A stretch of 64,000 nt of DNA from Acidaminococcaceae bacterium (GTDB lineage: Bacteria > Bacillota > Negativicutes > Acidaminococcales > Acidaminococcaceae), in contig JBFWIF010000001.1 of the NCBI GenBank assembly GCA_050256135.1, forward strand, positions 17,647 through 81,646, in the 5' to 3' direction. Below, piece after piece: positions 54,773 to 59,481 of the stretch. Each line of letters opens with the position of its first letter. Positions within the stretch are counted from its first letter, which is position 1. A program made the translations under genes and the position numbers. The notes under the pieces were generated by a model that had not been told where the DNA came from, searched no databases, and was given only the letters and a program-made list of their open reading frames with translations.

Positions 54773-54940
54773 TTATTTTACTTTTTTGTCTTTCTTTTTA
54801 TTTTTCATGTATTCTGTGAAGAAGAGCAGAGCCCGATAGGCACCATAAAGTGATTGAACAACAAATAATATTACAAGCAAGGCAAGTAAAACAGGAGATA
54901 GCCCTGAACCCGTCTTGAAAATAGCATCTTTAGCAAACAT
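54773..54940 (-). CDS. small (55 aa) single-TM protein, not in the supplied ORF track
   Basis: Encodes MFAKDAIFKTGSGLSPVLLALLVILFVVQSLYGAYRALLFFTEYMKNKKKDKKVK. AGGAG lies 8 nt upstream, and a TCTCCCT / AGGGAGA hairpin plus T-run follows on the minus strand at about 54744-54766. Confidence 0.4.
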   Translation of the reverse strand: MFAKDAIFKTGSGLSPVLLALLVILFVVQSLYGAYRALLFFTEYMKNKKKDKKVK

Positions 54941-55146
54941 ATGAAGGACTCCTAACTCTCAAGCATTAAAATGCTTTTATAGATATAATTAACAACAAGA
55001 AAATAATGTGAAATATTTTAGTTGTTTGAAAGATTAGTTAAGAAATATTAAATGATATTTTATTATAGCATTTGCACAAGTGGTTGTTCGAAAAATTCTA
55101 TTGTCGAATTAAATTGTCCGGAAAATCGACGGTGATATTTAAAAAA

Positions 55147-55542
55147 CTATTTTTTAGTCAGGTATTCTTTTTCGATAGAATCAATATCTTTAATGACGTC
55201 TTGCCCAAAAAGGCTGATCATTTTTGACTTGGCCTTTTCTTTTACAGACTTATCTATATATATCAAGCAAACTGCTACTGCAAATACAAGTACACCTAAG
55301 TCATCGCTATATCCGACTGCCGGTATTAGGTCAGAAATTGCATCCAAAGGTAAGATGAAGTAGCCAAGAGCACTTAATACGGTTCCTTTAACTTTTAGCG
55401 GGACTCCCGGTTTTAGAGCGGCATAATATAGGAGCAAAGCCAGATATATTACTGATGTACCCGCCATCTTGGCATATTTAGCAATCTTATCAAAAAATGA
55501 TTTTTCGGAATAATTATCTTCGTAATTCATATAATTCTTCAT
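55147..55542 (-). CDS. YkvA/DUF1232-family membrane protein
   Basis: ILPLDAISDLIPAVGYSDDLGVL motif. Confidence 0.75.
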   Translation of the reverse strand: MKNYMNYEDNYSEKSFFDKIAKYAKMAGTSVIYLALLLYYAALKPGVPLKVKGTVLSALGYFILPLDAISDLIPAVGYSDDLGVLVFAVAVCLIYIDKSVKEKAKSKMISLFGQDVIKDIDSIEKEYLTKK

Positions 55543-55740
55543 CTGCCTTTCAGTTTATATTAATTTTGTCTGAGTAGTTTTTTCTACAAAATTTATAAAA
55601 ATTCCTTCTCTGCCTGTGAATTACAACAAAAAAGCTCCCGTTAGAGGGAGCTAACATCATGAACATTATTGTTATGATGCATTTTGCTGAACAAGCATAT
55701 TATTTGGTATTCGTATATTGATACTGGCTCTTCATAGATT

Positions 55741-56577
55741 TTATGATGCTAACCGAAGAGTTATTACGCCAGAAACTATTAAAAAGGATGCTATCATATT
55801 TGCGATTGTTAGTTTTTCTTTCAGGAAGACTGCGGAAATAATCATAGCAAATAAGATTGAAGTTTCTCTTAATGCGGCTACTACAACAACAGGTAAAAAT
55901 GTCATTGCCCATAAGGCTAAACCGTATGACGCCATCATACCCAGCCCTCCAATTATTCCCAAATGCCAGTAAACCTTAGTGTAGTTAATAAAATCTGAAT
56001 AATTATCAATAAAACGCCAGCCAACCAAAAGGATACCTTGAAATAACATTATCCATAACACATAAGATATCGGTGAATGTGATAAACGAACACCTATACC
56101 ATCAACAAGAGTATATGCTGCAATAATTAATGCATTTAAGAGTGCTAACCATATTCCTTTTGTTGAGGAATGATCGGATTTTAATGCTATTACAAGTATT
56201 CCGATACAAATAAAAAAAATACCAACCCATGCTTGCAATGTAATATTTTCTCCTATAATGGCTATTCCTAAAAAGGCTACCAAAAGGGGAGCTGTACCTC
56301 GCATCAGCGGATATGTCTGGCTCATTTCTGCGATGCGATAAATATGCCCAACCAAGGTAAAGTAGATAACCTGCAAAATAACCGATGCAAAAATAAAAAG
56401 CCAACTTTCTCTGTCTGGTTGGATTGTAAAAGGTAATACACAAGCAGCGATCAGGGTGCCAAAGGCTGCTACTAATACTGTCGTTAAAGTTGAATTAGCA
56501 CCATTTTTAACTATTGCATTCCAAGCTGCATGTGAAAAAGCAGCAAAAATGACAATTGCAAAAACAAAAGTATCCAC
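55741..56577 (-). CDS. EamA/DMT-family transporter
   Basis: 278 aa, ten-TM pattern, N-terminus FAAFSHAAWNAIVK. GTG start after GGAGG. Confidence 0.75.
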   Translation of the reverse strand: MDTFVFAIVIFAAFSHAAWNAIVKNGANSTLTTVLVAAFGTLIAACVLPFTIQPDRESWLFIFASVILQVIYFTLVGHIYRIAEMSQTYPLMRGTAPLLVAFLGIAIIGENITLQAWVGIFFICIGILVIALKSDHSSTKGIWLALLNALIIAAYTLVDGIGVRLSHSPISYVLWIMLFQGILLVGWRFIDNYSDFINYTKVYWHLGIIGGLGMMASYGLALWAMTFLPVVVVAALRETSILFAMIISAVFLKEKLTIANMIASFLIVSGVITLRLAS

Positions 56578-56637
56578 GAATTTGTTTCCTCCAAGTTATT
56601 TTTGTATTTTAATTTATTATATTATCCATTATTTAGT

Positions 56638-56704
56638 CGAATCGAGCCATCAACAAAAAAGCCCCTCGAAAAGAGGAGCACATAATCATTGGAGCGGATG
56701 GCGA
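56638..56704. repeat. direct repeat: copy of the tRNA-Gly terminator plus the last 15 nt of the tRNA
   Basis: Matches 58737-58803 at 64 of 67 positions in my hand alignment. It ends in TGGAGCGGATGGCGA, the complement of the tRNA 3-prime end including CCA. Confidence 0.8.
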
Positions 56705-56733
56705 CACATGCAATACGAGATCGGCGAGAGCGA

Positions 56734-56830
56734 AGCGAGGCGCAGATGAAGTAGGGCAGCGGTTACGAGCGTAACGAAGTGTAGAGAGATAACTTCAAAC
56801 AACCGAATCGAGCCATCAACAAAAAAGGTC
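56734..56830. repeat. direct repeat of the tRNA-Gly downstream flank (unit X)
   Basis: 97 nt, differing from 58667-58763 at a single position. Confidence 0.8.
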
Positions 56831-57494
56831 ATCATTTATATGGAGTAATATGAACAAACTATTGCTAGAAGATTATTCCTTTGTCAGAAAGAATTTTTAT
56901 GTAAATTTCTGCATTTTGTAAAGGTTTTTTGAAAATAAACCAAAGAAACGAGTCACTACACCTGTGCCAAATTGAAAATTTAAATAAGTCATGGTTACAT
57001 GTGACTTGGTCTCAATAGGATATTCGGAGACCATAAGAAATATTTAAAAGCCATTCGGTTGGAATTGAGGACTATAACAAATTTTACTATTTTTGCCGAA
57101 AATTGGCCCAAACAATAGATTCTTTATGATGTTACTTGTTCTTTGAGGTTTTTTGCCATCAGCAATCAGAGTCTTCACTGTTTTTGAATATGCAGTAGCA
57201 GAGCATATACACTATAATTAAAGTAATAATAGTCTTGCTATAGGAGTTGGAACGTTACGCACAGACCATTTTGGAGGCAGTCCGGAACGGTAATTTTTTA
57301 TTTAAAAGAATCTTAACCCCAACATTTTTCAGAACGACATACTGTGCAACGAGGAGTTTTAATGAAAATATAACACGGAATATAGAGGAAAATCCATTAA
57401 TAATAGTATGGACAAATTAATGGATTTTCTTAGGACTTACCTGTCTTTGACAGTATTGGCAATAGATAATATAAAACAATTCCAATTATATATA

Positions 57495-58442
57495 TTAATC
57501 AAAAAAACTGGTTAAAGATGTCGTTATTTTTTGGTTAGAAATATTATTCACATGATTTTTATCGTATAAATGAAGAACTTCATGCCCGATAATTCTCCAA
57601 TGCTCTACGGAGGTTTTTCCATATAATGCAACTATCTTTTTATTAAGAGCGCCGGCAATATGACCTAGCCCGCCATCACCGCAAAGAACAATGTCAGCTG
57701 CGTTAACGTAAGAAATGAAATTATGAATATTAGGAGTTGTATATATTTCTGTATCTACTTTTAACAAGGATTTTAAATCAACTGCTTTGGGAAGATCGCT
57801 TTCCTTTGCCGTAATCAAGACCGAAAAAGGATAATTATTAGAAAAAGAATTGAGTATATCAGCTGTTTTCTGATTAGATAATTGAGACGTTTCACGATTG
57901 TTAGACACTTCAACCATAATATGTTTTTTACCGGTATATTGGCATTTATAAGGTTGAATAAGTTCCTGATTGAATTCAGGATAAACTTCATCAGGAATCT
58001 TTTCGATGCTGTGATCGAAAAATTTTAAGCTGCAGAGAGCTACAGAAGTCTTATATAATTCATCTTCGCTGCAACTATATGGATGATTTACCGTTTTTGA
58101 TATAATGCTGGTTACACGGCCATATCTTTCTTTAGCACCAATCAAATACAGAAACAAATTATTTAGTTTGGGATAATCCGGCATAGGGGAGAACCCTATA
58201 TCAGGTTGAATATATCTGTATTTCAAAGCAGTTTTAAGGGTTTTAAGATATTTATTACCTTTTGGTATGCAATAGACATGGGCATCTGGAAAAAAATATC
58301 TTACAAGCTCAACGTTTCTATAATTCATAAAAAAGTAAAAATCGCATTTGCCATAAGCTATTTGCAAATAATTGCAAATAGGTACCATTCCGGCGAGAAA
58401 ATCACCTAGACCAGTACGCCTGATCATAACAATTTTTTTCAT
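57495..58442 (-). CDS. glycosyltransferase family 9 (heptosyltransferase-like) protein
   Basis: MKKIVMIRRTGLGDFL N-terminus and the C-terminal CGDGGLGHIAGAL motif, typical of GT9. Visibly AT-rich. I chose the start at 58442 because GAGGTG precedes it. Confidence 0.75.
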   Translation of the reverse strand: MKKIVMIRRTGLGDFLAGMVPICNYLQIAYGKCDFYFFMNYRNVELVRYFFPDAHVYCIPKGNKYLKTLKTALKYRYIQPDIGFSPMPDYPKLNNLFLYLIGAKERYGRVTSIISKTVNHPYSCSEDELYKTSVALCSLKFFDHSIEKIPDEVYPEFNQELIQPYKCQYTGKKHIMVEVSNNRETSQLSNQKTADILNSFSNNYPFSVLITAKESDLPKAVDLKSLLKVDTEIYTTPNIHNFISYVNAADIVLCGDGGLGHIAGALNKKIVALYGKTSVEHWRIIGHEVLHLYDKNHVNNISNQKITTSLTSFFD

Positions 58443-58666
58443 GCAATCACCTCTAAAAAAATTCTCTAACAAGCAAACCTTTCTGACTACTTTGCAATAT
58501 TTATTTTCTTATCGGTAAATATACGTGCAGGATATTTTTAGCTAGCTGCTTCTATGACTAGAAAGTAGTTCTGATATTGTAGTTTTAGCATGTCGTCTTT
58601 TCTCTCAATTACAACGAGGTAATTTTTCTATAAATCGATCTATGAAGCGGCAAAATACTGGAACGG

Positions 58667-58803
58667 AGCGAGGCGCAGATGAAGTAGGGCAGCGGTTACG
58701 AGCGTAACGAAGTGTAGAGAGATAACTTCAAACAGCCGAATCGAGCCATCAACAAAAAAGGTCCTCGAAAAGAGGAACACATAATCATTGGAGCGGATGG
58801 CGA
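58667..58803. repeat. right-hand copy of the repeat units (X + terminator + tRNA 3-prime end)
   Basis: Contiguous X (58667-58763) and Y (58737-58803) units adjoining the intact tRNA. Confidence 0.8.
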
Positions 58804-58863
58804 GATTCGAACTCGTGACCCACGGCTTGGGAAGCCGGTACTCTACCACTGAGCTACATCCGC
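58789..58863 (-). tRNA. tRNA-Gly (anticodon CCC), CCA encoded
   Basis: The reverse complement GCGGATGTAGCTCAGTGGTAGAGTACCGGCTTCCCAAGCCGTGGGTCACGAGTTCGAATCTCGCCATCCGCTCCA folds as a cloverleaf with anticodon loop TTCCCAA. My fold shows C27-U43 and A49-C65 terminal mismatches. Confidence 0.85.
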
Positions 58864-58938
58864 ATATGAAGCTGATACACCGAATAGTATAGCGCATTTT
58901 AGACATTTTGACAACAGCGGTAGCTGGGCGTAAAGGCG

Positions 58939-59481
58939 CTAAGCCTGTTTTGAGAAAAAACTTTTTTGGTTGAGCTGTAAGTTATTCGCCAATAAATGAA
59001 TTAATAATTCTTCAAAAGCAGAGAGAAGGGCAACACTACATAAGATATAAGGAAAGAACCCTAAATGAACAACAGGCATTAATAGTGGGAAAAGCAAGAG
59101 CAGAAATCCAGTTATCTTATTTCCATAAGTATGAAGTATCGCGAACGTTTTATATTTGATCAATACCACCAATAGTGACAGCAACCTTATAACGGCAATA
59201 ATTACTATCGAGATAATGATTTCGGTATTTAACATTACTTTGATGAACGGATATAGTGAGATTATAACTGTGAAGAACATAATTAAGTCAGCCAGGGAAT
59301 CAAGTCTGCTGCCTAATTCGCTTACGGTGTTACTTCTTCGCGCTAGATAGCCATCAAGAATATCGCTGACTCCACAAGCACGATAAATAAAAATATACGC
59401 TGTGCTTAATGGCAGTACTAAGAGTAAAGCCAAAGAGAGCAATATTCTAGTAAATGAAATGTAATTTGCTAATGTAGCCAT
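58939..59481 (-). CDS. CDP-alcohol phosphatidyltransferase family protein
   Basis: DILDGYLARRSNTVSELGSRLDSLADL matches D(x)2DG(x)2AR...G(x)3D(x)3D. The start at 59481 is my choice; the ORF track has TTG at 59499. Confidence 0.8.
   Translation of the reverse strand: MATLANYISFTRILLSLALLLVLPLSTAYIFIYRACGVSDILDGYLARRSNTVSELGSRLDSLADLIMFFTVIISLYPFIKVMLNTEIIISIVIIAVIRLLSLLVVLIKYKTFAILHTYGNKITGFLLLLFPLLMPVVHLGFFPYILCSVALLSAFEELLIHLLANNLQLNQKSFFSKQA

Follow-up and report, generated by a model that had tools for sequence, protein, structure and literature searches.

The analysed window, 64,000 nt of contig JBFWIF010000001.1 from an Acidaminococcaceae bacterium (assembly GCA_050256135.1), contains a tRNA-Gly(CCC) gene whose 3′ end recurs on the far side of a low-GC insert. 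We consider it likely that the locus is an array of trailer modules anchored to the tRNA gene, in which a small cargo of mobile type is lodged and exchanged by homologous recombination, and that the core of the module is a structured RNA. The low-GC segment, 1.83 kb long, is situated within a single full module and is flanked by a 106-nt duplication of it (copies B and B′).

The tRNA-Gly(CCC) gene (58789–58863, minus strand, as are all module copies described below) was predicted by ARAGORN and matched the Rfam tRNA model with 63.5 bits; a promoter-like site for it was detected at 58914–58886. Its final 15 nt, TCGCCATCCGCTCCA (58789–58803), constitute the repeated tail, which occurs at two sites in direct orientation, the other being 56690–56704, with none expected by chance. 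When the locus is read in the orientation of the tRNA, the initial 60 nt of the gene are followed by copy A (58734–58803), composed of the 15-nt tail, a weakened terminator hairpin (58762–58776) and a 24-nt motif designated M, then by the rest of copy B (58661–58766), a 106-nt module segment encompassing M and the 5′ part of the core, and by the 1,827-bp cargo. Beyond the cargo lies copy B′ (56728–56833, again M and core, 106 nt), then a 23-nt piece and copy A′ (56635–56704), with the tail copy, a strong terminator (56661–56679) and M, which closes the array as an incomplete unit and is followed by an EamA-family gene. Copies A and A′ are identical at 66 of 70 positions, copies B and B′ at 102 of 106. 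The recurrence of tail, terminator and flank reported in the initial annotation was reproduced over its 67-nt span (64 identical positions), its 97-nt flank repeat indeed contained a single mismatch, and the short motif said to occur three times corresponded to the 24-mer CGAATCGAGCCATCAACAAAAAAG at 56638, 56804 and 58737 (0 expected, 100 shuffles). No further copies of any of these repeats were found in the 134 contigs of this metagenome-assembled genome (MAG). In a genome-wide scan of tRNA genes for tail repeats, tRNA-Gly(CCC) was the sole case, the two other hits being duplicates of whole genes. A decayed tRNA gene was considered as the source of the module unit and rejected, as no similarity to the first 60 nt of the tRNA was detected and ARAGORN gave no prediction.

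Units of the same kind were found without cargo at tRNA-Gly(CCC) in G002, G005 and G017, three species of which two belong to the same genus as the window and one to a second genus, and in the metagenome contigs L042–L045. In these loci, the tRNA gene is followed by one to three units, each consisting of the 15-nt tail, a terminator, a linker of about 30 nt, a core of about 100 nt and the 23-nt piece, with no gene between units. The period is 166 nt in the window and 166–177 nt in the relatives, and the point at which the 23-nt piece joins the tail was 100% conserved across the relatives' loci. The arrays always close with a partial unit (tail, terminator and about 30 nt) at the same position in all species, and the flanks beyond it differ. 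The order hemB-hemL-...-array-tRNA-CNNM is conserved, with variable DNA in between; the G001 genome has the tRNA without any unit. Because the relatives carry the same units cargo-less, the distal copy of the tRNA 3′ end predates the insert. Judged from these comparisons, the trailer-unit array is older than the cargo and common to the two genera. Either tandem duplication or the ancient action of an integrase at the T-stem region could have produced the first tail copy.

Two further features of the units were observed in the relatives. In G003 (L029, G003:C92, 387–530), a unit lacks the 3′ half of the core and the tail owing to a deletion between two CGCTC microhomologies. In most relatives' units, GCGAGATTCGAA is located about 20 nt past the terminator (e.g., 9520–9535 in L043), and a degenerate form of it was noticed at 56804–56815 of the window. 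This sequence can be read either as the reverse complement of TTCGAATCTCGC of the tRNA or, equally well, as the T-stem 5′ strand copied together with TTCGAA; the arrays stop 3 nt beyond the motif.

A protein identical to the GT9-like glycosyltransferase encoded in the cargo is recorded in five other assemblies. A 12-kb contig (L052) was collinear with the window and 99.6% identical to it, with both repeats and the cargo on one contig. Four short contigs (L053–L056) showed 100% identity over the tRNA/A/B/cargo or the cargo/B′ junctions and broke inside B or B′, which is typical of repeat-bounded DNA. A contig of the same species from another sample (L062), found via a look-up of the neighbouring EamA protein, lacks the cargo. 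It starts inside the tRNA and continues with the tail, terminator, M, core, 23-nt piece, a second tail, terminator and M, and the EamA gene, so that the 23-nt piece and the distal tail copy are kept and the cargo is missing together with one 106-nt repeat. Towards the tRNA, the M-plus-core segment of this contig shows the variants of B, and at its far end those of B′; it is, therefore, the exact product of a crossover between B and B′. All four differences between B and B′ are located at the cargo-adjacent ends and are derived relative to the family consensus. The prediction of an empty site, made in the initial annotation, was borne out as to the existence of a same-species variant but not as to its extent, since the missing 1,933 nt follow the register of the 106-nt repeats and do not correspond to 56705–58666. 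Copy A′ persists in this allele and in the relatives. The search for additional empty-site contigs via the CDP-alcohol phosphatidyltransferase gene on the other side of the tRNA yielded none, all such contigs ending in the tRNA or in B.

The variant pattern in L062 is consistent either with a Campbell-type crossover involving a diverged copy of the module or with deletion of the cargo. Gain and loss of the cargo would proceed by homologous recombination across the 106-nt B/B′ repeats and not at the tRNA tail; the cargo may have been acquired by a Campbell-type crossover with a circle bearing a diverged copy of the module, or by allelic replacement from a donor. In several respects the locus resembles islets gained and lost between direct repeats: the cargo lies between 106-nt direct repeats that are 96% identical, the empty allele is a recombinant of both, and the cargo-linked variant bases adjoin the cargo. 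The repeats, however, are no ordinary gene ends; they are parts of a conserved structured module that follows a tRNA.

The cargo (56834–58660, minus strand) has a GC content of 32.3% relative to 40.5 ± 3.4% for windows of the same size in the genome, which places it in the lowest 1.1% and supports its description as foreign-looking DNA. The AT-rich character noted earlier was thus confirmed for the insert, but the low-GC block is wider than the insert, extending from about 53.3 to 59.6 kb with 35% GC. The stretch of the insert described as free of open reading frames (ORFs) was likewise without a convincing ORF (56834–57494). The GT9-like gene (57495–58442, minus strand) encodes 315 aa and matched Pfam PF01075 with 44 bits (cut-off 22), the match being restricted to residues 227–305 in the C-terminal part. 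The best NCBIfam heptosyltransferase equivalog gave 32.8 bits against a cut-off of 185, and the protein remained below all such cut-offs; by these matches it is predicted to have a GT9 fold and to be a divergent member of the family. Just downstream of the stop codon, a perfect 14-nt inverted repeat (57388–57429) was detected in an inverted-repeat scan and is probably the terminator of the gene. The tRNA-proximal terminator of the array (58762–58776) carries two changes that reduce it to five contiguous pairs, in comparison with seven in the distal copy (56661–56679) and in the family consensus. As no promoter-like site was found between the proximal terminator and the GT9-like gene start, this gene may be expressed by read-through from the tRNA promoter.

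Of 30 relatives, only two had a homologue of the GT9-like gene, which in one case forms part of an integrase island at tRNA-Arg; a 79%-identical homologue adjoins genes for a resolvase, SSB, the topoisomerase TopB and a MobA relaxase. Homology of the cargo to the relatives bearing this gene comprised only the gene and about 100 nt of upstream sequence. These matches support a patchy distribution of the gene, with relatives located in integrase- or relaxase-bearing elements. The search for transposase remnants suggested earlier revealed a decayed N-terminus of an IS3-family orfA (about 56860–57039, minus strand), recognized by similarity to an intact element at C14:13176–14512 (69% nucleotide and 50–55% amino acid identity) and ending abruptly about 25 nt from the cargo/B′ junction. 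Only about 180 nt are orfA-like, with stop codons, and an orfA (HTH_Tnp_1) and orfB (rve) pair between inverted repeats is lacking; the piece is a remnant and no element. The intact element in C14 has orfA and orfB with a frameshift, and since its ends recur at the ends of contigs C31, C40 and C94, it is a multi-copy element that breaks the assembly. In agreement with the initial annotation, neither an integrase gene nor an integrase remnant was detected in the insert in ORF, Pfam and remnant searches.

The conservation of the module core was studied with a sequence model (R1), used first, and a structure (covariance) model (R2). The intact core (56700–56796, minus strand) matched R2 with 98 bits (E 2.5e-19). 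It contains a conserved 57-nt hairpin (56705–56761, minus strand), the 3′ arm of which is the 23-nt piece (56705–56727) abutting the tail copy, so that the end of the hairpin coincides exactly with the start of the next tail copy. In copy B, R1 matched model positions 1–72 only (58658–58729), corresponding to the 5′ arm of the hairpin alone, because the cargo cuts the 3′ arm off; the cargo interrupts the tRNA-proximal copy just 3′ of the hairpin tip, and only the distal copy is intact. Between species, the 92-nt core was 82–93% identical, whereas the neighbouring CNNM coding DNA was 71–85% identical. With both models, relatives of the core were detected behind tRNA-Val(TAC) in a third family, as one to three tandem 171-nt units, each ending in the last 26 nt of that tRNA and a terminator. 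Other relatives were found convergent to 5S rRNA genes, about 80–120 nt past their two-way terminator; they belong to at least five additional genera from two families.

The pairing of the hairpin was preserved across these sequences. In an alignment of 13 sequences made with MAFFT, 94% of the cells could pair and three pairs switched between two clades; in 33 model-aligned sequences, 93.8% of the cells paired, in comparison with 31–53% when the partners were slid. Compensatory changes were observed at 9 of the 15 pairs, with up to five pair types per position in the 33 sequences. G-U pairs were frequent and compatible with the tRNA-sense strand only. The compensatory changes and the strand-specific G-U pairs point to selection on the folded strand. 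The core is pyrimidine-rich on the tRNA strand and has a conserved C/U-rich apical region, GCGCGUCGCUYYGCUCCUUC in most clades. The core is most likely a structured RNA; its transcription would run in the tRNA direction and stop at the terminator that the module itself carries. When the locus was scanned with Rfam (gathering threshold, E ≤ 1 and E ≤ 10), only the tRNA was returned. A small basic peptide resembling E. coli Tpr, on the opposite strand, was tried as a candidate product and rejected by eye: in the 18-codon frame, GGAG and ATG are separated by only 3 nt, and interspecies differences alter the amino acids.

Several observations weigh against this explanation of the locus. The empty site is represented by one short-read scaffold of 1,169 nt, and an assembler could in principle have crossed the 68-nt identical stretch of B and B′; however, contigs of a sister sample from the same project, with the same naming scheme, break at B when they bear the cargo. 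As to the structure, RNAalifold run on the structure-blind alignment gave only three apical pairs, the alignment of 33 sequences was fitted to the model, which favours pairing, and its weakest members had per-genome E-values of 5e-4 to 8e-3. The fold of the single sequence was unexceptional (z-score −1.4), and no convincing promoter was detected in a promoter scan before the core, either here or at one copy of the 5S type. Close homologues alone, analysed with RNAalifold and by folding, were too conserved to be informative, and the signal appeared only with distant homologues added. In favour of the hairpin, its stems are discernible by eye in the structure-blind MAFFT alignment.

The closest known architecture is that of the RtT repeats in the E. 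coli tyrT/tyrV operon, described for rttR (PMC3318445; bioRxiv 10.1101/2024.07.17.603846). The tyrV-rttR locus of E. coli K-12, fetched for comparison, holds 3.14 copies of a 178-nt unit, each starting with a 19-nt tRNA tail and containing AAGGTTCGA, and the last being partial. Both systems consist of gene-less tandem units of about 170–180 nt directly behind a tRNA and in its orientation, both carry the 3′ tail of their own tRNA in each unit (19 nt in E. coli, 15 nt for tRNA-Gly and 26 nt for tRNA-Val), and both arrays close with a partial unit beginning in the tail. A copy of the T-stem 5′ strand with TTCGA is present in some units of both, as AAGGTTCGA in E. coli and GCGAGATTCGAA in the relatives. 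However, no match to the RtT covariance model (RF00391) was found at E ≤ 1 in 4.5 kb or at E ≤ 10 in 261 nt, and homology to the E. coli unit was rejected since the local alignment was no better than with shuffled sequences. Unlike in RtT, a terminator is present in every trailer unit here, the tRNA strand of the core is rich in pyrimidines, the core also occurs convergent to 5S rRNA genes, and one unit is split by a gene-bearing insert. If transcribed and terminated as proposed above, the core RNA would be a functional analogue of the E. coli trailer repeats. Likeness to integron cassettes was judged by eye only, and the GTT... following the T-run does not fit GTTRRRY.

The second point of comparison is the islands in tRNA genes, recognized by the Islander principle (PMC4383910), and the cis-mobilizable elements (CIMEs) and their tandem accretion, treated in a review of integrative and mobilizable elements (PMC5704250). 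The displaced 3′ fragment of the tRNA, downstream and in direct orientation, the hot spot piling up several events, the integrase-less cargo of foreign composition and a genuine integrase island at the same tRNA in a sister species are all shared with them. In that species, G005, tRNA-Gly is followed by a gene for a Xer-like tyrosine integrase and a 12.4-kb island (L033, G005:C100, 7100–19345) with genes for an AbiU2-like HEPN protein, a SIR2-like protein, a BglII-like nuclease and a resolvase. The att sites of this defence island are classical; its boundary is a 47-nt copy of the tRNA starting in the anticodon loop, after which the cargo-less units come, and a copy of the 47-nt type was also found in L045. 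tRNA-Gly(CCC) is thus, from the sequence of this locus, a true integration site in the sister species, with a core and an element different from the trailer units.

The locus in the window departs from this class at several points. Between the tRNA and its fragment, only the GT9-like gene and the IS3 orfA remnant are present instead of an integrase or its remnant, and the fragment is not the far end of the cargo, as L062 keeps it without cargo and the relatives have it cargo-less. The borders of the cargo are 106-nt homologous repeats of the module and not a short att core, the units are gene-less and 166–177 nt long, and no element with the 15-nt core, whether cognate integrase or carrier of an attP, was found in relatives, phages, plasmids or IMG/VR. 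The island and CIME models explain the displaced tail copy; they do not explain gene-less units of 170 nt at two tRNAs and 5S rRNA, the lack of a matching element or the covarying hairpin.

Three other explanations of the locus were weighed against the array with recombining cargo. According to the initial annotation, the tail copy is the classic footprint of integration of this insert; the two tails would be attL and attR of an islet inserted site-specifically into tRNA-Gly, the integrase of which was lost by decay. The direct orientation of the tail copy, the low GC between the tails and the proven use of tRNA-Gly for integration in the sister species (G005 and likewise L045) would be expected in that case. 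The retention of the distal tail copy in the empty site, the identical tail junction without cargo in sister species and metagenome contigs, the true borders at B and B′ and the content of the insert, an IS3 orfA piece in place of an integrase, contradict it, and the proven island has its different 47-nt core upstream of the units. The site-specific islet is, therefore, largely refuted and we regard it as very improbable. Among the alternatives raised at the outset (a decayed islet, a re-integrated element or a local segmental duplication), the last came closest; the duplicated material is itself a unit of a conserved repeat family. Still less credible is the notion that the duplicated flank and the insert result from mis-joined strain variants during assembly. 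The genome is indeed a MAG of 134 contigs and related MAG contigs do break at the repeats, but the copies of each repeat differ at four positions, and the second assembly with the whole arrangement on a single 12-kb contig together with the four further assemblies matching the junctions argue against it. Since six independent contigs from five other assemblies reproduce the arrangement or its junctions, the insert-bearing form is no assembly artefact.

An explanation which we find unlikely, yet deserving more weight than the two preceding ones, regards the units as inert scars of ancient CIME-like integrative elements of the T-stem type, decayed to their attP arms and copied by unequal crossing-over, with the hairpin being a recombinase or single-stranded DNA site, or an accident, and no RNA. 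The layout of n units plus a fraction with a terminal tail copy is an outcome of Campbell-type integration, and the tail copies begin in the T-stem 3′ strand, in keeping with att sites of the T-stem class (PMC4383910). Both the decay to CIMEs and accretion in tandem have been documented (PMC5704250), and the position of the array end is constant in all species, the flanks beyond it varying. In G017, moreover, the tRNA-nearest unit is 88–96% and the distal one 82–87% identical to the units of other species, as expected if the newest insertion is the one closest to the tRNA. On the other hand, the unit had no match in phage records, plasmid records or IMG/VR contigs and no integrase was linked to units at any of the eight loci inspected. 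The core is also found behind a different tRNA, with the tail of that tRNA, and convergent to 5S rRNA, which is no integrase target. Its conservation exceeding that of neighbouring coding DNA, and the compensatory changes and strand-specific G-U pairs indicating selection on the folded strand, favour the structured trailer module instead.

The regions on both sides of the array also varied between genomes. A gene for a CDP-alcohol phosphatidyltransferase (58939–59481, minus strand, 35% GC) is placed between the tRNA and CNNM in this lineage only, CNNM being at most a few hundred nt from the tRNA in all relatives examined; this gene may have been inserted as well, as a second event on the tRNA's other flank. 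Distal to the array, at 54773–56577, EamA-family, DUF1232 and 55-aa genes were identified that have no counterpart at the locus in the relatives, and the same far-flank position is occupied by a 137-aa ORF in genomes of the G005 type and by a gene starting with MFAKE in G002, G003 and G006. As its genes differ between relatives, the far flank of the array is also a site of swapping. Elsewhere in the same genome, at C30:136–1032 (L074), a 174-nt unit, together with 2.7 tandem 248-nt units, lies behind a 5S rRNA gene. A copy of the 5S terminator is present in each of them, along with a GTTGCCGG(C)TT piece that resembles the 3′ end of the 5S and, in inverted form, 12 nt copied from the 5S 3′ region (AACTTTCTATCC). 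This locus is the genome's second repeat array of the tail-plus-terminator kind.

As a broader and tentative proposal, the modules may belong to an uncatalogued family of structured trailer RNAs of Negativicutes type, located 3′ of tRNA-Gly(CCC), tRNA-Val(TAC) and 5S rRNA, the tRNA-linked form of which ends in the host tail and a terminator and multiplies in tandem. Such a family would be a convergent counterpart of RtT; its C/U-rich apex could be the working part, for instance by pairing with Shine-Dalgarno-like sequences, and its repeats could serve as a landing pad for the swapping of cargo.

Where low-GC DNA adjoins a partial copy of a tRNA 3′ end, an integration scar is routinely assumed. 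The locus described here calls for caution in the use of island finders, as the copy at tRNA-Gly(CCC) is part of a conserved module and the cargo appears to be moved by homologous recombination instead. To our knowledge, trailer repeats bearing a tRNA tail have been catalogued for the enterobacterial RtT only. If the present explanation is true, an unrelated RNA family with RtT-like architecture and a structure supported by covariation exists in three families of one class, at two tRNAs and 5S rRNA. Its distribution across the three families suggests that trailers are a recurrent solution and not an oddity of E. coli, and it would provide a second system for asking what trailers do and how their tail copies arise.

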